Positions 912 through 20,019 of a stretch of 64,000 bases of DNA are shown here, in pieces (positions within the stretch are counted from its first letter, which is position 1; each line of letters opens with the position of its first letter). A model generated the notes under the pieces. It worked only from the letters and a program-made list of their open reading frames with translations, did not search any database and was not told the DNA's origin. This DNA comes from Mosigvirus mar005p1, in sequence record OZ035759.1. One strand, 5' to 3'. Position numbers and translations under genes: made by a program.

Positions 912-2426
912 ATGACAGATATTAAAGTACATTTTCATGATTTTAGCCATGTAAGAATTGAATGCGACGAAAGCGTGTTCTATGAATTACGCGACTTTTT
1001 TAGCTTTGAAGCCGATGGGTACAAATTCAACCCGCGTTACAAATATGGGAACTGGGATGGTAGAATTCGACTTTTAGATTACAGTCGTTTGTTACCATAT
1101 GGACTTGTAGGACAAATAAAAAAGTTCTGTAACAATATGAGTTATTCTGTATGGATTGACCCTAAAATCTTTGAGACCGAAGACCTTACCAGGGAAGATT
1201 TTGACACATGGCTTTCTAAACAAGAAATTTATTCCGGCAATGCCAAAATCGAACCACATTGGTATCAAAAAGATGCAGTATATGAAGGACTAGTTAATCG
1301 TCGTCGAATTTTAAACCTTCCGACATCAGCAGGTAAATCACTAATCCAAGCACTTTTAGCTCGGTATTATCTAGAGAACTATGAAGGTAAAATTCTCATT
1401 ATCGTCCCTACAACAGCATTGACAACCCAGATGGCTAATGATTTTGTTGATTATCGATTGTTTAGTCATTCGATGATTAAGAAAATTGGCGGTGGTGCCG
1501 ATAAAGCGGACAAATCTAAAAACGACGCTCCAATTATTGTTGGCACATGGCAAACAGTAGTTAAGCAGCCTAAAGAATGGTTCTCTCAGTTCGGTATGAT
1601 GATGAACGATGAATGCCACTTAGCAACAGGCAAAAGTATTTCTTCAATCATTGCAGGATTAAATAATTGCATGTTTAAATTCGGTTTATCCGGCTCATTA
1701 AGAGACGGAAAAGCCAATGTAATGCAGTACGTAGGTATGTTCGGCGAAATCTTCCGTCCTGTTAGCACGTCTAAATTAATGGAAGACGGTCAGGTAACTG
1801 AGCTTAAGATTAATAGTATTTTCCTTCGTTATCCAGACGAATTCGCCACCAAATTAAAAGGTAAAACATACCAAGAAGAAGTTAAAATTATTACCGGACT
1901 AAAACGACGTACAAAGTGGATTGCTCAACTTTCAGTAAAATTGGCTAAGAAAGACGAGAACGCCTTTGTAATGTTTAAACACGTTACACACGGTAAAGAA
2001 ATATTTGAAGCTATTAAAGAGCTTGGATACGAAAAAGTTTATTACGTATCAGGTGAAGTTGATACTGAAACACGTAATGCGCTTAAAGTCATGGCAGAAA
2101 ATGGTAAAGGCATTATTATTGTTGCATCATATGGAGTATTCTCTACTGGTATTTCAGTCAAGAATCTTCATCATGTTATTTTTGCCCATGGTGTTAAATC
2201 AAAAATTATCGTACTTCAAACCGTAGGTCGCGTGCTTCGTAAGCATGGTTCTAAAGCTGTTGCTACAGTTTGGGATCTCATCGACGATGCAGGTGTAAAA
2301 CCTAAATCATTAAATACTAAAAAGAAGTATACTCATCTTAATTACTTGTTAAAACACGGTATTGATCGTATCCAACGTTACGCTGATGAGAAATTTAACT
2401 ATGTAATGAAAACAATTAATTTATAA
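912..2426 (+). CDS. uvsW: UvsW DNA/RNA helicase (SF2)
   Basis: 504 aa; near-identical to recalled T4 UvsW; Walker A PTSAGKS and DECH box. Confidence 0.95.
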   Translation: MTDIKVHFHDFSHVRIECDESVFYELRDFFSFEADGYKFNPRYKYGNWDGRIRLLDYSRLLPYGLVGQIKKFCNNMSYSVWIDPKIFETEDLTREDFDTWLSKQEIYSGNAKIEPHWYQKDAVYEGLVNRRRILNLPTSAGKSLIQALLARYYLENYEGKILIIVPTTALTTQMANDFVDYRLFSHSMIKKIGGGADKADKSKNDAPIIVGTWQTVVKQPKEWFSQFGMMMNDECHLATGKSISSIIAGLNNCMFKFGLSGSLRDGKANVMQYVGMFGEIFRPVSTSKLMEDGQVTELKINSIFLRYPDEFATKLKGKTYQEEVKIITGLKRRTKWIAQLSVKLAKKDENAFVMFKHVTHGKEIFEAIKELGYEKVYYVSGEVDTETRNALKVMAENGKGIIIVASYGVFSTGISVKNLHHVIFAHGVKSKIIVLQTVGRVLRKHGSKAVATVWDLIDDAGVKPKSLNTKKKYTHLNYLLKHGIDRIQRYADEKFNYVMKTINL

Positions 2427-11370: not shown

Positions 11371-13458
11371 CTATCCTTGGACAAATTTAAACGGAACTGA
11401 TTCTAAATCCATTAAAGACGCTAACAATTTCAAACCTTTAGGTGCACTAGTTTTTTCTACAAATGAGGAGAACGATACCGGCTCATCTGATTCGATTTCA
11501 CCCGTCATAGCAACCACCTCGCCTGTTTCCATGAGAACATCACCATCGTAAATGACAGCTTCGTCCAACTGGTCCGAGGACATAACTTCAGCTTGAATAA
11601 ATTTAAGGTTGGATTCTAAACCTGCACCAGTGTCAGATGACGCATCTGTAATTTTATTTATCTGCAAGAGAATGCCTCTAGGCAAAATAATTTCTTGCTC
11701 ATTAGGGTGATTACTCAACTGTCCTGGATAAATCACGTTAACTTTATGAGCGCCATCAATAGCCCATCCAACGTTAACACGGATTTGTTCTGGCGCATGC
11801 ATAGCTGTTCTTACTTGACTAGGAGAAATAGTAACACCTTCGTCATTATTGTCAATGTTAAGCTCTTTGCGAACTTCTTCAGGAGCAAGTCCAAGGGCAA
11901 CGTTCTCTTTAAACCCGCCGAAAATAATAGGAGCTAGTGAAGTGGAAACATAGTTTCTGAAGTAGAATACCTTATTTTTAACCATTGCTTCGTAAATAGG
12001 CATTCTGATAGACTGAGCTCTATATAATGTTAGTCCTTCAGGTAAACGGTCTCCGTTTAAAAACGCTGAATCAAGACCATCAATAGCGCGTTTAACTTCA
12101 TCTTCATCTGCAACATCGTAAAAATCTGGTTTATAGCGACCTAACAACATATTATTAATATCGGTATACGCAGAAGAGGCATATTCACGAATAGCTCGTT
12201 TTTCAACAACAGAGTATTGTTTAGGGTCCCGATTCATTGTTATATTAAAGGTGCCTCTAGCCGATTCTCGTGCATAAGTATACATCACATTAGACAAGAA
12301 CGCTGATTTACGTTGTTTCCAAGTTCTTTCAGATACTTCAGCTAAAACGTCGTCGGGCAGTTGGAAATTATCACGTCTAAAATCTTCAAACCATTCGTCT
12401 CTAATAGAGTCTGCAATTTCGTTTGCAGCTTCAACAAAAGCAGCTAATGCTTTAACAGATGTTGTTTTTTCAGTTTTAATTTTCTTAGCAAACTTTTCTA
12501 AAGCCGGCTTAATAACACTACCATAAGAAACTTCATCAGCAAATCTAAAGGATTCATCAATACGATTATAAATCTTATTTTCGATATCAGCAACTAAAGT
12601 GCCTTTTGCTGTGGATGATGCTTGGGCTAGTACGATTTCATATGCTTCAGGAAGTAATTCGGCTGTAGCCGGGCCACTAACTTCTTTAGCAGAATTTTCG
12701 TATTTCTGGAATAACTCACCTTCTTGGCGGTCAGCTTCTAAAGATTGACTTGCTGCAATAGCACGACGAGAAATTTTAGTACGAGCAATAACAGGCTTAT
12801 CTTTACGTTTTTCTTCTACAGCAGCAATAGAACCAGCGATAGCCGTTTCTTTGGTGACTTTTTCGCCGGTCTTTTTACTCACATAAACTTCGCCAACATC
12901 AGAATCTACTTTCGCGTACAACTCTGTGTTAATGTTAGGGATGCCTTTAATATCTTCAATGTTGGCATTTTTACGAACCATCATCACATAGGTGTGTTTA
13001 CCTGTGAATTGATACATTGCCGACAATACTTTAAAACGACCACCTGTTTTAGTAGAAACTAGACGAGCAAGAAGAGTTTGAAGTTGTTGTCCACGTCCTT
13101 TCAATTTCTTGGTAGGGAATCGGAACAGAACTGCATCCATACGAAGAGCTTTAACCTGTTCATACACTGTATTGAAAATGGTGTTGATTGCATCAATAGG
13201 AGCAGGACCAAGGCCATTTTTCAATTCAGCGAGATTACCCTTTTCAGACAGACTCATAATAACAACATGAGCGTATTTATCGCCAAGTTTAACTTGTTTT
13301 ACAGCATCGCCTTCAGAAAGGTAAGAGAATAAGCGAACTACAATATTTGTATCAACATCACCAATTTTCCAGACTTGTGGAACTTTAGCTTTAGGGTTCA
13401 AATTGACGACAGGAAGACTGCCTTCAGATTCAAACACTTCATTTAATTGTTCAGACAT
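11371..13458 (-). CDS. alt: Alt ADP-ribosyltransferase (packaged into virion)
   Basis: 695 aa; T4 synteny and size; ART-like C-terminal region. Confidence 0.9.
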   Translation of the reverse strand: MSEQLNEVFESEGSLPVVNLNPKAKVPQVWKIGDVDTNIVVRLFSYLSEGDAVKQVKLGDKYAHVVIMSLSEKGNLAELKNGLGPAPIDAINTIFNTVYEQVKALRMDAVLFRFPTKKLKGRGQQLQTLLARLVSTKTGGRFKVLSAMYQFTGKHTYVMMVRKNANIEDIKGIPNINTELYAKVDSDVGEVYVSKKTGEKVTKETAIAGSIAAVEEKRKDKPVIARTKISRRAIAASQSLEADRQEGELFQKYENSAKEVSGPATAELLPEAYEIVLAQASSTAKGTLVADIENKIYNRIDESFRFADEVSYGSVIKPALEKFAKKIKTEKTTSVKALAAFVEAANEIADSIRDEWFEDFRRDNFQLPDDVLAEVSERTWKQRKSAFLSNVMYTYARESARGTFNITMNRDPKQYSVVEKRAIREYASSAYTDINNMLLGRYKPDFYDVADEDEVKRAIDGLDSAFLNGDRLPEGLTLYRAQSIRMPIYEAMVKNKVFYFRNYVSTSLAPIIFGGFKENVALGLAPEEVRKELNIDNNDEGVTISPSQVRTAMHAPEQIRVNVGWAIDGAHKVNVIYPGQLSNHPNEQEIILPRGILLQINKITDASSDTGAGLESNLKFIQAEVMSSDQLDEAVIYDGDVLMETGEVVAMTGEIESDEPVSFSSFVEKTSAPKGLKLLASLMDLESVPFKFVQG

Positions 13459-13515: not shown

Positions 13516-13703
13516 TAATCCACAATCGGGAGCAAAGTACGATAAACTTCAAAATTAGGGCCTTTTTCGTACTTATCAAAATTGTCCATAAAAATATGAT
13601 AGGAATCGTTATTAGGAAAATCTAATATAATCTGAGAGCAAGAGGTGGAAACATCTCCACCATCCTTCTTAGCTACAATAACTGTTTCTAAATAAGCTTT
13701 CAT
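13515..13703 (-). CDS. hypothetical small protein (start at internal Met MKAYLETV; ATG overlaps gene 30 stop as TAATG)
   Basis: 62 aa; translational coupling to gene 30. Confidence 0.45.
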   Translation of the reverse strand: MKAYLETVIVAKKDGGDVSTSCSQIILDFPNNDSYHIFMDNFDKYEKGPNFEVYRTLLPIVD

Positions 13704-15196
13704 TATAAACCTGTCTGGGACCACGGTCCAAATACGTCTTCAAACGAATCCGCTTCTGTTTTATCAAAACGGAACCCTTTAATAATTGGAAGGAAAATAC
13801 CTACAGTACCTTCACGGCCTTTAGAATGAACCCAACCATTACATTCACAATCAGCGATACGTCCAATCAATTTACCTTCACGTGCTTCCTTCATTAGTTT
13901 TTCACGGTCTAAATCATGACGCTCGTCTAAAGGAATAAGAACCTTTACATCATCAACTGTTTTATGAGTTGTATCTTTAAACCCTGAACCGCAATCGGTT
14001 GTAATACGACGACAACGTGATACGAGTTCGACACCACCTAATTTGTTAGGGTCTTTAGAGTGTTCATAGTATCCTACAACTTCTAAAGCAATATCAATAA
14101 CTTCTTTAAATTTAATTAGGTTCTTAGAGCGTTTGTTTTCCCAATACGAATCACGGTTTTTAAGGATAATACCTTCAAGACCTTGGTCAACATATTTTTT
14201 ATAAACCACTTTAGCTTCGTCAAGATTATGAACTAACTGATTTTCAATTGGCTCAATTCGCTTAAAGCCTTCGGCCATATTTTCAAGAGCAGCAAAACGA
14301 ACATCGTATTTCTGACCTTTAATTTTGCCATCAGAATAGACTTCATCTAAAGGAACATAGTCCCAGGCTTGAAGAACCATACCTTCCGCTTCTTTAGGAG
14401 AAATAGTCCCTTGAAGAGATTTATTTGCTAAACCATTTGAAGTGCTACGGTCCGCAACTTGTACTTCTTCGGATTCTTCATTATCACCAAATAAGAACGA
14501 CAGGTCATTTCCTGAGCTCACAGCCTTTTTAATATCGAATGAATGATAAACTAATTCACCGTCGATTAAAACCCCATTAGGGTGTCTTTCACGAGCTTCT
14601 TTAGTCATTTCCATTAGTTCATCCGCTAATAGAGTAAGACCATGGTATTCGTTACCGGCACGAGAAAAGAATTGAACACCATCATCGCGAACTTCAGCGA
14701 AACAACGAGCACCATCTGCTTTTAATTGGGCAAATGCAGGCCATTTAATATTTTTAGTAATCAATTTCTCATCATATGCAGATGCTAACATCTGTGGTTG
14801 CAATTGAATAAGTCCAGGCCACACCTTATTCGCGATAGACACTGAAGCACCTACTTCAAGGTCGCGCATCATTACACGACGAAGGACTTCTACATCATCG
14901 GGTTTACCATCAGCGATATAACCCATGAGCTCTTTAATTGCAGCATTACCAGTGAGTTTACGAGTGGCTAATGTGAACTCAATAAAATCCAACATGTCAT
15001 CTAATTCAAGAAGTCCATACGCTTGAGACCTTTCACCCGGTCCTGGCCATTTCTTAATATAATACTGGATACCACGTGCATATGTTAAACGATACACACG
15101 TTCAAGTAATTTGTTGTCCTTATTTTTCTTAAGGATTTCTTGTTTTGTTTTAGTAGAACCGATCGCAGCTATTTGGTTTAAAATATCTAAAATCAT
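13703..15196 (-). CDS. 30: ATP-dependent DNA ligase gp30
   Basis: 497 aa; near-identical to recalled T4 DNA ligase; KADG adenylation motif. Confidence 0.95.
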   Translation of the reverse strand: MILDILNQIAAIGSTKTKQEILKKNKDNKLLERVYRLTYARGIQYYIKKWPGPGERSQAYGLLELDDMLDFIEFTLATRKLTGNAAIKELMGYIADGKPDDVEVLRRVMMRDLEVGASVSIANKVWPGLIQLQPQMLASAYDEKLITKNIKWPAFAQLKADGARCFAEVRDDGVQFFSRAGNEYHGLTLLADELMEMTKEARERHPNGVLIDGELVYHSFDIKKAVSSGNDLSFLFGDNEESEEVQVADRSTSNGLANKSLQGTISPKEAEGMVLQAWDYVPLDEVYSDGKIKGQKYDVRFAALENMAEGFKRIEPIENQLVHNLDEAKVVYKKYVDQGLEGIILKNRDSYWENKRSKNLIKFKEVIDIALEVVGYYEHSKDPNKLGGVELVSRCRRITTDCGSGFKDTTHKTVDDVKVLIPLDERHDLDREKLMKEAREGKLIGRIADCECNGWVHSKGREGTVGIFLPIIKGFRFDKTEADSFEDVFGPWSQTGL

Positions 15197-15378
15197 TTGA
15201 TATCCTCGATTTTGGTTACGGTTCTATTATAAGCCACTTCATCTAGAAGCGATTTCAGCGTTTTCTGATAAGTGGTAATCCATTTACCGAGTCCTTCAAC
15301 ATAATATTCTGAAATGTAGATGAACCCTTGTTCAACACACTCTTTAAATATTTCTGCGTCTTTTACTGAACGAAACAC
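15193..15378 (-). CDS. 30.1: 30.1 hypothetical protein
   Basis: 61 aa ORF coupled to gene 30; T4 synteny. Confidence 0.55.
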   Translation of the reverse strand: MFRSVKDAEIFKECVEQGFIYISEYYVEGLGKWITTYQKTLKSLLDEVAYNRTVTKIEDIK

Positions 15379-15471
15379 CGGTCAGTCTCGAAAGAACATG
15401 TTAACATGACCGTAGTCACGTGTGCTGGTTTTGCCATCTGTAATATCATGAACTACAAACATAATTAGCCC

Positions 15472-16287
15472 TTAACAATTTATAGACCAAGTCCATTTAG
15501 ACGAATCTAAAGGAAAGTTTTGAATCGTCCACCATGGCTGCATATCGGTTGGTCCTGGAGTTCGCCAAGTATACGGATTCGACGGAGTGCCAATTTGATT
15601 AGGCCATGCACCTGGACTTGTTGCACCAGATTCTTTAAGCAAATCTGCCAATCGTTTTAAAAGGTCTTCACGATCTGAATCTGAATTATGCTCTGGCGGA
15701 ACCAATCGAGATTCAATATCATCCCACGTGTGTACACGTTGTGCAGTACGAGGAATGGCATCACGTTCACCACGAGCCAACCAATAAATCGGTACATTAA
15801 GAATTTCTGCCGCATGGTCACAGTGATGAGCTAAATCGTCAACGTAACAAATCACGTTATATTTTGTTTTAGCTAGTTCAAATAATTGTTCCTTTGAAGA
15901 ATCATGACCACACATCATTACTTCGGAGAAAGCGCCTGGGAACAAAGCATTCAAATTAAATTGTCTATTCAATCGAGCATCAATTGAATCACCTAGCGCC
16001 GTCACGGCTACAAAATTATAGTCTTCTTTTAGTTTATTGATAACTCGAAGAGCATCCGAATAAGGCGCTAAGTAACGAATAAAATCAGAGCGATTATATT
16101 TTTCTATTAATTGTTTACCAAGGTTATCGTCGGTATTGAACAGTTTACCAGGAGAAATAAATTTTTCGTCCTGAATCATTTTTAAAATATGTTCTAATGG
16201 AAGATTATATTTTTGGGCAAAATAAGGAAGTCCAGATTGCCAACTTAAACATACACCATCAATATCGGTCAAAATAGTAGGCTTCAT
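15472..16287 (-). CDS. 30.2: 30.2 HAD-superfamily phosphatase-like protein with Trp/Pro-rich C-terminal tail
   Basis: 271 aa; N-terminal DIDGV (DxDG) HAD motif I. Confidence 0.65.
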   Translation of the reverse strand: MKPTILTDIDGVCLSWQSGLPYFAQKYNLPLEHILKMIQDEKFISPGKLFNTDDNLGKQLIEKYNRSDFIRYLAPYSDALRVINKLKEDYNFVAVTALGDSIDARLNRQFNLNALFPGAFSEVMMCGHDSSKEQLFELAKTKYNVICYVDDLAHHCDHAAEILNVPIYWLARGERDAIPRTAQRVHTWDDIESRLVPPEHNSDSDREDLLKRLADLLKESGATSPGAWPNQIGTPSNPYTWRTPGPTDMQPWWTIQNFPLDSSKWTWSINC

Positions 16288-16751
16288 AGAGAGTCTCTTA
16301 ATAGGTTTAACACATCAATAAATTCAGCTTCGGTTAGTATTGTATCATCTTTTGTTAGACCACTAGCCATGCTGTGCTTCAAAATTTTTCCTTTAGAGGC
16401 TTGTAAGGCATCACGAAACCCCTTGTTTTGGATCGCAGCTTCAAAATATGCATTTGTGTATAATTCTTTCCACGCTGGAGAGTATCTTGAAAACGGAACT
16501 CCAATCCAGAAGAGGGTCCCACGGTCCTGAGCTCTAGCATAAGCTCGTCCAGCTTGTTGGGCGGCAAGCCCGGATAACCCAAATATACGTCTTTGCTGTT
16601 CAACATTTTTCACCTTACATCCTTGGAGAAATCCTTCAAGACCTCCGAATTGAATACCATCCATAACAAAAGGCCATTGAGCAAAGTTACTTAATGCACA
16701 TGACGGCCACTTGAAATTACTTCTTATTTCTAATTCAGACATCTTTAACAC
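16284..16751 (-). CDS. 30.3: 30.3 NADAR (YbiA/DUF1768)-like protein
   Basis: 155 aa; LSNFAQWPFVMDGIQF resembles the YbiA core FSNFAAWPIKVDGKTW (recalled). Confidence 0.65.
   Translation of the reverse strand: MLKMSELEIRSNFKWPSCALSNFAQWPFVMDGIQFGGLEGFLQGCKVKNVEQQRRIFGLSGLAAQQAGRAYARAQDRGTLFWIGVPFSRYSPAWKELYTNAYFEAAIQNKGFRDALQASKGKILKHSMASGLTKDDTILTEAEFIDVLNLLRDSL
16379..16606 (-). CDS. possible nested ORF within 30.3 in an alternative frame (T4 30.3'-like); may be spurious
   Basis: 75 aa ORF fully inside 30.3. Confidence 0.2.
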   Translation of the reverse strand: MLNSKDVYLGYPGLPPNKLDELMLELRTVGPSSGLEFRFQDTLQRGKNYTQMHILKLRSKTRGFVMPYKPLKEKF

Positions 16752-16953
16752 TTATAATTTCAACATCAGCCCAATGACCGTATCCAGGTATACGGTCTTC
16801 GATAGATAAATTTCTGTCATTTTTAGGCATTTTAATTGACGTAACGTATGGTTCTAAACGGTTTTCCGCGTAATATGGAAAAACGTCGGTTACACGATAA
16901 GTAACTTCAATCATTTCCGTACCAAACAATTTCTGGATTAATTTATTCAACAT
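16735..16953 (-). CDS. 30.4: 30.4 hypothetical protein
   Basis: 72 aa; T4 synteny. Confidence 0.55.
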   Translation of the reverse strand: MLNKLIQKLFGTEMIEVTYRVTDVFPYYAENRLEPYVTSIKMPKNDRNLSIEDRIPGYGHWADVEIISVKDV

Positions 16954-17140
16954 GTTTCAACCCTTTAATAGGAGATAACTCTTTACCCATACGTATGTCA
17001 GAAGTCCCATCAACCCATTGAACAGCATACGCTTCATTGATAATTCCAGCGGCAGTTTTAAATTCGTTGAGAACTTTAAAAATCATCCCAGGGATTCCAA
17101 CACCTTTTAATTGGACTGTTTGTGCTATTAAAAATTTCAT
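16943..17140 (-). CDS. 30.5: 30.5 hypothetical protein
   Basis: 65 aa; T4 synteny; early promoter upstream. Confidence 0.55.
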   Translation of the reverse strand: MKFLIAQTVQLKGVGIPGMIFKVLNEFKTAAGIINEAYAVQWVDGTSDIRMGKELSPIKGLKHVE

Positions 17141-17164
17141 ATTTTTCCACTTACTAAAGAAATC

Positions 17165-17195
17165 ATTATACTCTAATCCGTCCTTGGATGTACAC
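17165..17195 (-). promoter_or_regulatory. T4 early promoter (TGTACA N17 TATAAT, minus strand) upstream of 30.5
   Basis: plus attata 17165..17170, tgtacac 17189..17195. Confidence 0.5.
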
Positions 17196-17809
17196 TACTT
17201 AATGAAATTAATTTCTACCGGATGAACAACAGGTTGAGCAGTGATATATTGAGTAATTGCTTTCATGACTAGAGCTTCAGAACCAGGATTTTTCTCAACG
17301 AATTCACGTGCTAGGTTATGAGCTTCGAGTTCACTCAATAAACCGGAACGCTGGCATCCACGGTCTTGAGTACCCTGTTCAGATAAAAGGACTACTACAT
17401 ATTTTTCATCGTCGTAGGGCTTAGCCAGTTGAGCAAATGTTCCTTTACTTCCAAAAGGAGAGTTATGTCGCCACATCACGCCGTGAGGAGTTTCAACCTT
17501 CGTATATTCGTGCGGTCCATTTTTCTTAGTTTCTTGATGTGGAACTTCATAGACCTTAGGGTTAGGACATTCAATAAAATGCTCATCTAAATCGGTCGAG
17601 AATATTAAAGTAAAACAATTACTGAATTTACCAACACCGGCCTGATAAATTTTACCTTCAGAAGTTCTAATTTCACAAACTGAGCCGGCATCAGTAACTT
17701 CTAAAACTTCAAAAGGCTCGATAAGGTCATATGAGAACATGTTTTTAAGGCGTGGAGTAATATCCCCATTTTTAAAATTCATTTTATAAAAAGTATTAAC
17801 TTTAAACAT
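17195..17809 (-). CDS. 30.6: 30.6 hypothetical protein (track ORF used a TTG start inside a hairpin; ATG at 17809 with GAGGAAATT spacer preferred)
   Basis: 204 aa; strong RBS. Confidence 0.55.
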   Translation of the reverse strand: MFKVNTFYKMNFKNGDITPRLKNMFSYDLIEPFEVLEVTDAGSVCEIRTSEGKIYQAGVGKFSNCFTLIFSTDLDEHFIECPNPKVYEVPHQETKKNGPHEYTKVETPHGVMWRHNSPFGSKGTFAQLAKPYDDEKYVVVLLSEQGTQDRGCQRSGLLSELEAHNLAREFVEKNPGSEALVMKAITQYITAQPVVHPVEINFIK

Positions 17810-17821
17810 AATTTCCTCAGT

Positions 17822-17837
17822 GGGAGCCGAAGCTCCC
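17822..17837 (-). terminator. UUCG-tetraloop hairpin (GGGAGC UUCG GCUCCC) downstream of 30.7
   Basis: perfect 6-bp stem plus tetraloop. Confidence 0.5.
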
Positions 17838-17844
17838 AATTAAT

Positions 17845-18210
17845 TTAGATATCAAATTCGTTAAGAACTACATCAAAGATTGCTTCGAGATGTTCAGGTT
17901 TAGCTCGGTTACTCAGGATATGACGAATCCAAGTTTTAACCAGAAGTTTACGATTAACACCATTCCAGCAAGGATGAGTACCTAAATCACGCTGACGGAA
18001 ATCATCATCTAATGCAATTTTAAAATTTGAACCTTCCATCGTGATTGAAACCGTGATGCCATTTTCAAATCGCATATAAACGTAATTAGGAGTCATGCAC
18101 TGTTCGATTTCACAAACTGTACCGTTTTCGTGTTTCCATAAGCAAATAACTTCAGAAGAACCAGCGATACCGTTAGAAACATATTTACGTTCGAAGTTGA
18201 TGTAGTTCAT
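17845..18210 (-). CDS. 30.7: 30.7 hypothetical protein
   Basis: 121 aa; T4 synteny. Confidence 0.55.
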   Translation of the reverse strand: MNYINFERKYVSNGIAGSSEVICLWKHENGTVCEIEQCMTPNYVYMRFENGITVSITMEGSNFKIALDDDFRQRDLGTHPCWNGVNRKLLVKTWIRHILSNRAKPEHLEAIFDVVLNEFDI

Positions 18211-18252
18211 TTTATTCTCCAGATGTTTAAGTTGTTTGTTGGTACAGGTCTA

Positions 18253-18280
18253 TAATAACATAACCTGTACCAAAGTAAAC
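18253..18280 (-). promoter_or_regulatory. T4 early promoter (GTTTAC N17 TATTAT, minus strand) upstream of 30.7
   Basis: plus ataata 18253..18258, gtaaac 18275..18280. Confidence 0.5.
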
Positions 18281-18284
18281 TGTT

Positions 18285-18653
18285 TTATGCAACTTTAATC
18301 CAATTGTCTAAATTTAAAACACCTTTGGCTTTCATTTTTTCGATCAGGTTATCTGCTGTAATGCGTCCATTTTGATACCATGTAACATCTTCAGAGTAAC
18401 CAGTTTCTTCGTCAACATATGTTTCTGAACGAATTTTACCGGTAATAATAGTTTTTAATTCGTATGTGTCACCTGTGAAAAAGTTTGCTAACACAATTTT
18501 CCAAGAGAAATCATCTGAAGGACCTTCAGGGGTCATACAACCTACGAACTCAAATTGCTCTTTGTATAACATCCACTGGAATTCTTTAATTTCGATAGCT
18601 TTATAACCGTCGTGGTCTTTACATTTGATGTATGAGTTCAGATTGATTTTCAT
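18285..18653 (-). CDS. 30.8: 30.8 hypothetical protein
   Basis: 122 aa; T4 synteny. Confidence 0.55.
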   Translation of the reverse strand: MKINLNSYIKCKDHDGYKAIEIKEFQWMLYKEQFEFVGCMTPEGPSDDFSWKIVLANFFTGDTYELKTIITGKIRSETYVDEETGYSEDVTWYQNGRITADNLIEKMKAKGVLNLDNWIKVA

Positions 18654-18695
18654 TTTGTTCTCCGGTTTGTTTTATCGATTAGGTGGTACAAGTCT

Positions 18696-18724
18696 ATAGT
18701 AACACATCCTACAGGAGAGTAAAC
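18696..18724 (-). promoter_or_regulatory. T4 early promoter (GTTTAC N17 TACTAT, minus strand) upstream of 30.8
   Basis: plus atagta 18696..18701, gtaaac 18719..18724. Confidence 0.5.
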
Positions 18725-18760
18725 ATCTTTTTAAACTTTTTCTGCCCTAAACGCACAAAA

Positions 18761-18778
18761 GGGAGACCGAAGTCTCCC
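18761..18778 (-). terminator. rho-independent terminator (GGGAGAC UUCG GUCUCCC then UUUU) after the 59-aa basic ORF
   Basis: perfect 7-bp stem, UUCG loop, U4 tract. Confidence 0.6.
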
Positions 18779-18783
18779 TAAAA

Positions 18784-18963
18784 TTATGCAATAACCTTTC
18801 CAAAACGAGAAGCATCATCTCGAAGAACTGCACGTGCTCTGCGCATGATCTTCTCAACTGTTTGATTAATACGAGAGTTCGACCCACGCTTGTAGCCAGC
18901 GCGTTTAGAGGTACCATCAACTTTCTTTTCAACTGCTTTCTTTGCTTTAGCTTGTTTTGCCAT
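18784..18963 (-). CDS. 30.9: small basic protein, 59 aa (MAKQAKAKKAVEKKVDGTSKRAGYKRG...), 30.9 position
   Basis: ATG 18963 to TAA 18784, ends just before the terminator hairpin; preferred over track ORF 18747..18932, which reads through the hairpin. Confidence 0.5.
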   Translation of the reverse strand: MAKQAKAKKAVEKKVDGTSKRAGYKRGSNSRINQTVEKIMRRARAVLRDDASRFGKVIA

Positions 18964-19258
18964 TATAAATTCTCTTTAAATGAAAATGCAGGACTTATTG
19001 GCATTGCCTGCGCAAGCCCTCAAGGGGAACATAGGTTTTGGATATTTAACGACAGGATAACCATAAACCTCGTCATCATACCAACCACGACTTAGACAGA
19101 TAACCTTTTTCTGACGCGTGATAGTACAAAATACATTCAAGAGGTACACCGTAAAACTGCCGGGGTCTTAAAACTATAATGATTCGCAAATCATTAATCA
19201 GACAGTTCGACGGCTCCTCGATTTTCTAGCCGCACTAAGGTAGCGAATCACCTAAAAC

Positions 19259-19507
19259 TTATTTAAGGGTAATAACAAAATGACGTACTGCTTTACGAGC
19301 TGCAGAAGCCAAAGGCTTAGCATATTTCAGTTCATCTTTTGCTTCCAGTTCAGAGGCCAAAGCTGCCTGTACCGGGTTCAGATGTTTGAAATATCGCAGG
19401 ATTTCAAGAGCTTCGGCTTCAACATCAATAGATGCGCCATAGTTTTCATGACCATTATTCCATGCGTTTCGTTGCAGTTCAAGAGCGTGTTGTAATTGTT
19501 TAATCAT
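19259..19507 (-). CDS. rIII: RIII lysis-inhibition accessory protein
   Basis: 82 aa; near-identical to recalled T4 RIII. Confidence 0.9.
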   Translation of the reverse strand: MIKQLQHALELQRNAWNNGHENYGASIDVEAEALEILRYFKHLNPVQAALASELEAKDELKYAKPLASAARKAVRHFVITLK

Positions 19508-19623
19508 TTTAAATTCTCAATTCGAGATAATATTTAGTAGCCACGTTCGTCTGAATTTCACTTCCTTTCGACAAGTCTCTCAGTTGTAGGCTACCGCTTA
19601 GAAGAGTGTTCTCTTCATATAGT

Positions 19624-19631
19624 TATTTATA
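19624..19631 (-). promoter_or_regulatory. late promoter box TATAAATA (minus strand) between gene 31 stop and rIII
   Basis: plus tatttata. Confidence 0.45.
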
Positions 19632-19964
19632 TCACTTATAAAGACACGGAATAGCTTTATAGTGGCATGTTACGAATTTCTGTTTAATTTCTTTAGGTTG
19701 TTTAAGTCCCAAAGCCACAAATGGATGCGGAACATTTCGAATTTGTCCAACTGGTAGTGGAGTCAAATCACCGACTTCAACAAAACCTTCAGGAACATCA
19801 GGACCTACAGAATGAACTACACATAGTTCAGGAACTTCACCTTGAACACGTTTACCAATCACAAGTCCTGATTCGGTAACTTCTTCATCACCTGCTTGAG
19901 CGGGTTCAGAAACCAGAATGACGTATTCACCAACAGCACGAATTGGGAGTTGTACTTCAGACAT
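19632..19964 (-). CDS. 31: gp31 co-chaperonin (GroES analogue)
   Basis: 110 aa; near-identical to recalled T4 gp31. Confidence 0.9.
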
Positions 19965-19994
19965 CTTATTTCCTTGTTGTTTGACGATAGATTA

Positions 19995-20019
19995 ATAATA
20001 CCATACTATTCGTAAAGCA
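19995..20019 (-). promoter_or_regulatory. middle promoter (MotA box TGCTTTA, 12 nt, TATTAT; minus strand) upstream of gene 31
   Basis: plus taaagca 20013..20019 and ataata 19995..20000. Confidence 0.5.

Follow-up and report, generated by a model that had tools for sequence, protein, structure and literature searches.

Gene 30.3 of bacteriophage T4, now called adfN, encodes a guanine-specific DNA adenosine diphosphate (ADP)-ribosylglycohydrolase that has been described as necessary and sufficient for resistance to the DarTG1 system (PMC11825919, PMC11125620, bioRxiv 10.1101/2025.11.20.689424). Here we compare with it the corresponding gene on the minus strand of a 64,000-nucleotide stretch of Mosigvirus mar005p1 (sequence record OZ035759.1; this whole stretch is called the window below), together with an open reading frame (ORF), 30.3', that is nested in it. 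Johannesman et al. (2025, Nat Commun 16:1598; PMC11825919) mapped the DarTG1 resistance of T2 and T4 to 30.3 via recombination with RB69 and renamed the gene. According to their report, deletion of adfN from T4 or T2 leaves no plaques on DarTG1 hosts, RB69 is rescued by ectopic adfN, and the T4 protein is impaired by E36A, by K43A and by C-terminal truncation. The purified T4 protein strips ADP-ribose (ADPr) from DarT1-modified DNA and the E36A variant does not; the same report gives no AdfN-DarT1 interaction in a two-hybrid assay and no effect of AdfN against DarTG2 (PMC11825919). Independent work describes T4 AdfN as active in vitro on guanine-ADPr and not on thymine-ADPr (Toxins 2024, PMC11125620), and insertions in 30.3/adfN are reported to be lost only on DarTG1 hosts in transposon sequencing (HIDEN-SEQ; bioRxiv 10.1101/2025.11.20.689424).

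Several other proteins provide points of comparison. The gp30.3 of RB69 is an orthologue in a related T-even clade, whose members in our set are about 85% identical. A T insertion at nucleotide 411 of RB69 adfN is reported to remove the last 15 residues (PMC11825919), and RB69 is sensitive to DarTG1 because of this frameshift. Among the phage counter-measures to DarTG are also AdfN(Bas32), AdfN(Bas60), AdfA (T4 61.2 family) and AdfM (T4 tk.4 macrodomain). The Bas32 and Bas60 proteins are NADARs specific for guanine-ADPr, like AdfN, but they come from different NADAR branches and need no T-even infection to work, whereas AdfA binds DarT1 instead of repairing DNA and AdfM is a macrodomain aimed at DarTG2. 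On the bacterial side, DarG1 (E. coli C7; Geobacter lovleyi, PDB 8BAT) is encoded beside DarT1 and neutralises it in uninfected cells, unlike T4 AdfN, which is an orphan and does not. E. coli YbiA (PDB 2B3W) and a Phytophthora NADAR (PDB 8BAU) represent the YbiA subfamily, at 15-20% identity; YbiA has been linked to hydrolysis of riboflavin intermediates (PMC11125620, PMC11543638). As described in the latter two papers, these groups can be told apart by the residue at the last strand, which is His in phage NADARs, Glu in the YbiA subfamily and Asp in the DarT-linked BC4488 type.

The gene of the window is an allele of adfN. The initial annotation had reported a YbiA/NADAR core motif in an ORF at 16284-16751, and this holds: the maximal ORF on the minus strand (16284..16751, 155 amino acids from a GTG) contains ALSNFAQWPFVMDGIQFGG, its product is identical to T4 gp30.3 (NP_049816) at 147 of 152 positions (97%), and it matches the Pfam family PF08010 Phage_30_3 over all model positions (1-138 of 138) with E=3.1e-69 and 231 bits against a cutoff of 36. 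It also matches phrog_652. The ATG at 16742 is most likely the true start and gives a coding sequence of 152 amino acids from ATG to TGA (16284..16742), because T4 30.3 is annotated as 459 nucleotides and 152 amino acids and because this is the sole start that matches the published numbering of E36 and K43. The three extra codons of the maximal ORF (GTG-TTA-AAG, 16743..16751), which come from the mechanical choice of its start, lie within the end of gene 30.4 and are probably not translated within AdfN. The five differences from the T4 protein are all conservative (K11R, A67S, I80L, I120V and M125I), and E36, K43 and H123 are unchanged. The window allele thus shares with T4 the gene and its genomic position, the length, these three residues, the C-terminal helix, the nested 30.3' and an internal middle promoter sequence, and differs in the five substitutions. 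Of about 730 close phage records, 600 have an AdfN at 95-99% identity.

To place the protein among NADARs, we collected 110 homologues of gp30.3 and aligned the 80 that are full length. All 80 sequences keep E36, K43 and H123, and also A16, L17, S18, N19, F20 and F25 at the N-terminal core motif, LSNFAQWPFVMDGIQF (residues 17-32 of the window protein, 16647..16694). The codons of the catalytic residues lie at 16635..16637 (Glu36, GAA) and 16614..16616 (Lys43, AAG), and that of His123, the last-strand residue that marks the phage (gp30.3-type) NADARs, at 16374..16376. A search of the PDB sequences with AdfN alone by phmmer gave just a chance match (E=1.1). The profile of the aligned family found E. 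coli YbiA as its sole match (E=0.0055), aligned over the SNF...E..FQ..K motif, with the LSNFAQWPFVMDGIQF stretch placed on YbiA residues 29-83, and the E36-K43 pair, at a spacing of 7, falls on the E...K motif of YbiA. The published counterparts of E36 and K43 are E43 and K50 in PnNADAR and E88 and K95 in the E. coli C7 NADAR (PMC11543638). In addition, 15 of the 80 family members match the NADAR family PF08719 (best E=1.5e-7), and several metagenomic homologues are labelled 'YbiA (DUF1768 family)' at their source. An AlphaFold2 model built on the alignment has a predicted local distance difference test score of 93.4 and a predicted template modelling score of 0.88; in it, H123 directly follows a strand formed by residues 120-122, and residues 138-151 form a C-terminal alpha-helix (16290..16331), which the full-length alignment with T4 also shows to be intact.

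For the superfamily with the YbiA fold, one further test agreed and the direct match to PF08719 was lacking. The last-strand His is that of the phage NADARs. It is not the Asp of DarG1 (BC4488), the neighbouring genes are 30.2 and 30.4 and not a DarT gene, no PADLOC match was obtained, and DarG1 and the window protein have no detectable direct sequence-profile match. Judged from the alignment and the structural model, AdfN belongs to the NADAR superfamily, within its phage gp30.3 subgroup, and is not of the DarG1 type. The NADAR/YbiA-like identity that had been suggested from the letters of the sequence is therefore supported by the fold, the family-profile link to YbiA and the invariant active-site residues.

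Taken together, these data make it very probable that the ORF is adfN, a small single-domain anti-DarTG1 enzyme with the NADAR fold, and that the nested 30.3' is most likely a by-product of the composition of AdfN. The identity of the protein, its fold, its conserved active site and its intact C-terminal helix come from the present analysis; the anti-DarTG1 function was already known for the T4 orthologue. The mechanism would be as follows. The host DarT1 of DarTG1 would ADP-ribosylate guanine bases in the phage DNA and block its replication; Glu36, Lys43 (in contact with phosphate) and His123 of AdfN would bind the ADP-ribose, and the enzyme would hydrolyse the N-glycosidic link to guanine, leaving unmodified DNA on which the phage could replicate. 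The protein would thus act as an enzyme on DNA and not by binding the toxin, and the thymine-ADPr made by DarT2 would not be a substrate. The window protein has its full 152 residues and an intact helix at 138-151, in contrast to the truncated RB69 allele, in which the helix, reported to be required (PMC11825919), is lost. From this and from the 97% identity to T4, we infer that the window allele is active and that the phage would be resistant to DarTG1. The suggestion that the gene is a counter-defence factor against DarT-type systems thus stands for DarTG1 and guanine-ADPr, on the strength of the published, 97% identical T4 protein, and does not extend to DarTG2 and thymine-ADPr.

A NADAR could also have a main role other than the countering of DarT1, such as a YbiA-like control of metabolite damage or, as alt lies close by, the reversal of the ADP-ribosylation carried out by the transferases of the phage itself, Alt, ModA and ModB. 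We regard this as extremely unlikely for gp30.3, given that without adfN plaques fail to form at all on DarTG1 hosts, and specifically there, while the phage can do without the gene on E. coli K-12. The last-strand residue of AdfN is His, against the Glu that defines the YbiA subfamily, and Alt targets proteins whereas the NADARs tested act on guanine-ADPr in DNA. The packaged ADP-ribosyltransferase gene alt (11371..13458, minus strand; phrog_802, E=7.6e-260, and T4 gene order) lies about 2.8 kilobases (kb) downstream of adfN, as had been pointed out initially, but four genes (alt.1, the ligase gene, 30.1 and 30.2) stand between the two and the remote homologues of adfN are found in differing neighbourhoods. 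A functional link between adfN and alt was considered and dropped, since T4-like synteny was all that was found in its favour, and the proximity by itself points to no functional connection.

The nested ORF, 30.3', occupies 16379..16606 on the minus strand in the +1 frame relative to adfN and has 75 codons. It had been noted before as a second ORF in another frame, and it is indeed present and equals the 30.3' of T4, with no sign of selection as a protein. It matches Pfam PF11097 DUF2883 over 75 of 75 positions (E=3.9e-42), a family which consists of this same nested ORF of T4-like phages. The annotation of 30.3' in T4 is reportedly based on a 1994 expression study. The T4 record notes it as 'internal translation, in a different reading frame', and record X53848 has as a ribosome_binding_site the Shine-Dalgarno-like AAGGTGA, which in the window lies at 16610..16616, 3 nucleotides before the 30.3' ATG.

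These features could mean that 30.3' is truly translated as an overlapping gene and has its own function, being a young overprint confined to phages of the Tequatrovirus/Mosigvirus type. The 75-codon ATG frame with its AAGGTGA 3 nucleotides upstream fits such a gene, as do the ribosome-binding site and the 'internal translation' of the T4 record. The frame is also open in 14 of 15 close relatives, and a diverged clade keeps an ATG in the same frame, one codon downstream, although it is built from different AdfN codons. The AAGGTGA itself is composed of the AdfN codons K43 and V44 and the first base of the K45 codon; AAG and GTG are minority codons (25% and 10% usage) and are still invariant in all 15 relatives. 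This invariance is not unusual, because 32% of all degenerate codons are likewise invariant in that set.

The substitution pattern argues otherwise. Between the window and T4, 30.3' is 83% identical (97% for AdfN) and many of its changes are radical. A faster divergence is expected, since what is a wobble position in AdfN is a second codon position in 30.3'. Over the 15 close relatives, the ratio of nonsynonymous to synonymous substitution rates (dN/dS) is 0.98 in the 30.3' frame, that is about 1, against 0.09-0.14 for adfN. The overlap shows no excess of synonymous conservation in adfN: its dS is 0.53 inside and 0.72 outside, a difference that is not significant by codon permutation (p=0.34), and invariant synonymous codons are as frequent inside the overlap (16/51) as outside it (18/55; Fisher p=1.0).

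The length of the ORF likewise requires no selection on a second protein. Among 20,000 synonymous recodings of AdfN with the codon usage of this phage, 22% had, in a frame other than that of adfN, an ORF of 75 or more codons beginning with ATG, and the exact 30.3' stretch stayed free of stops in 29%; about 4-5 codon junctions in this stretch are able to create a +1 stop. Three of the 15 close relatives have the ORF interrupted or without its ATG, all with adfN at 1501..1959 of the locus and with AdfN intact. In the first (L002), AAC in place of AAT at N46 turns the ATG into ACG and removes the start; in the second (L009), GTG replaces the ATG; in the third (L007, IMGVR_UViG_641509422_000001), TTA at L59, followed by GAC, gives a TAA in the +1 frame and hence a premature stop. 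We sought a related ORF in 66 remote adfN homologues and found it in none of them, and in about 729 phage records the 30.3' frame appears mainly in the 60-90% identity bands. Most deposited annotations list a single feature under 30.3'. The signature of a coding gene, namely purifying selection, a conserved start and suppressed synonymous change, was not seen in 30.3'. Judged by this comparison, 30.3' is probably not a protein under selection, and we find it quite improbable that it is an overlapping gene with its own function.

Several points weigh against reading the locus as an anti-DarTG1 NADAR gene with an incidental nested frame. AdfN itself has no direct match at E<=1 to PF08719 or in NCBIfam, and none to the PADLOC models, those for DarG1 included. 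The initial annotation had taken the lack of a NADAR/DUF1768 profile match as fatal to the NADAR call, and to the letter that lack is what the search returned. However, the match is missing because gp30.3 sits in a Pfam family of its own and not because homology is absent, so that the literal test would wrongly reject a correct call; for the same reason the NADAR membership rests on the fold, the transitive profile links and the conserved residues. As reported in the literature, including PMC11125620, DarT1 is not neutralised by T4 AdfN in uninfected E. coli, and the non-T-even phages T5 and Bas25 gain very little from it. This weakness outside a T-even infection means that the simple picture of a free-standing antitoxin is incomplete, and AdfN of the T4 type may depend on some factor or context peculiar to T-even phages. 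Moreover, the hydrolase activity and the DarTG1 phenotype are established for the T4 and T2 alleles only. Finally, 30.3' may be translated to some degree, to judge from the T4 record and the annotated ribosome-binding site.

The dependence on T-even infection could in principle be explained in part by a translated 30.3', read from the AAGGTGA-ATG, or by the HAD-like product of the translationally coupled gene 30.2 acting as a partner. We hold either explanation to be highly improbable. Plasmids that carry adfN also carry 30.3', so 30.3' cannot be the missing T-even-specific factor. Gene 30.2 (15472..16287, minus strand; 271 amino acids) was identified from its ORF and its profile matches; its product carries DIDGV, the signature of HAD motif I, at residues 8-12 near its N-terminus and has a weak similarity to HAD_2 and 5'(3')-deoxyribonucleotidases, and among the PDB sequences it had a single weak and insignificant match, to a 5'(3')-deoxyribonucleotidase (E=0.52). 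As an obligate partner of AdfN it was rejected, since the PDB matches were insignificant and only 6 of the 66 remote loci examined have the gene next to adfN. The distribution of 30.2 over phages mirrors that of adfN because both are Straboviridae genes. We retain the anti-DarTG1 NADAR, with 30.3' as a probable by-product, as the reading of this locus.

The surroundings of the gene are those of T4. The 3 kb around adfN are 97.8% identical to Escherichia phage vB_EcoM_G2469 and match 726 phage records, most of them from Tequatroviruses of Escherichia and Shigella, and on this sequence comparison the window is assigned to a T4-like Tequatrovirus phage. The order on the minus strand is alt, alt.1, DNA ligase, 30.1, 30.2, adfN (30.3), 30.4 and 30.5, as in T4. 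The gene lies between 30.4 and 30.2 in the ligase-rIII early/middle block, and its junctions overlap as they do in T4: the final 8 nucleotides of 30.4 (16735..16953, minus strand; 72 amino acids, from the ORF and the T4 annotation) overlap the adfN start (ATGTCTGA), and the adfN TGA overlaps the ATG of 30.2 (ATGA). Such overlapping start and stop junctions are typical of translationally coupled early and middle genes of T4. The 3' part of adfN contains, at 16339..16364 on the minus strand, 26 nucleotides identical to the middle promoter PM30.2 annotated in T4 (X53848, 553-578), which would drive gene 30.2. Its -10-like box, GATACAAT, is invariant in all the close and Mosigvirus-like relatives inspected and coincides with the synonymously invariant codons D133-T134-I135 (133-135 are invariant in 15 of 15 relatives). 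A scan of 15000-20000 for promoters and terminators was uninformative, its counts of 17 and 3 being no different from the shuffled expectations of 15.4 and 3.3.

Downstream of adfN, the window allele of 30.2 shares only about 71-75% identity with its counterparts in most Tequatroviruses. Only about 148 phage records have an allele at least 95% identical to it, and in 588 the identity is 60-80%. The contrast with AdfN, at 95-99% in 600 records, points to a boundary of recombination close to where adfN meets 30.2. Gene 30.1 (15193..15462, minus strand) has an in-frame stop at codon 27, after MFVVHDITDGKTSTRDYGHVNMFFRD and before PVF, at a position through which the T4 gp30.1 (89 amino acids, DUF3045) reads; the final 61 codons alone form an ORF with a GTG start. 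From the sequence, the 30.1 of this phage may be split or may have become a pseudogene. The DNA ligase gene, recognised from its ORF and the T4 gene order, lies at 13703..15196 on the minus strand. The ligase ORF has 497 amino acids and the Alt ORF 695, where the T4 annotations give 487 and 682. On the other side of adfN, an ORF of 214 amino acids (17195..17839, minus strand; phrog_17531, of unknown function, E=3e-146) stands where T4 has the unrelated 95-amino-acid 30.6. This ORF is present in 1 of 82 fetched loci, and the region between 30.5 and 30.7 has the look of a variable cassette.

For the annotation of T-even phages, the comparative evidence indicates that the long-annotated 30.3'/DUF2883 is probably not a real protein family. 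The enclosing gene can be named adfN, with its start at 16742 and with the active site and the C-terminal helix intact. The phage is predicted to be resistant to DarTG1, and adfN is not expected to give resistance to DarTG2. As established for T4, AdfN is an antitoxin-like enzyme that a phage has turned to its own use, to reverse what a DNA-modifying immune system does.

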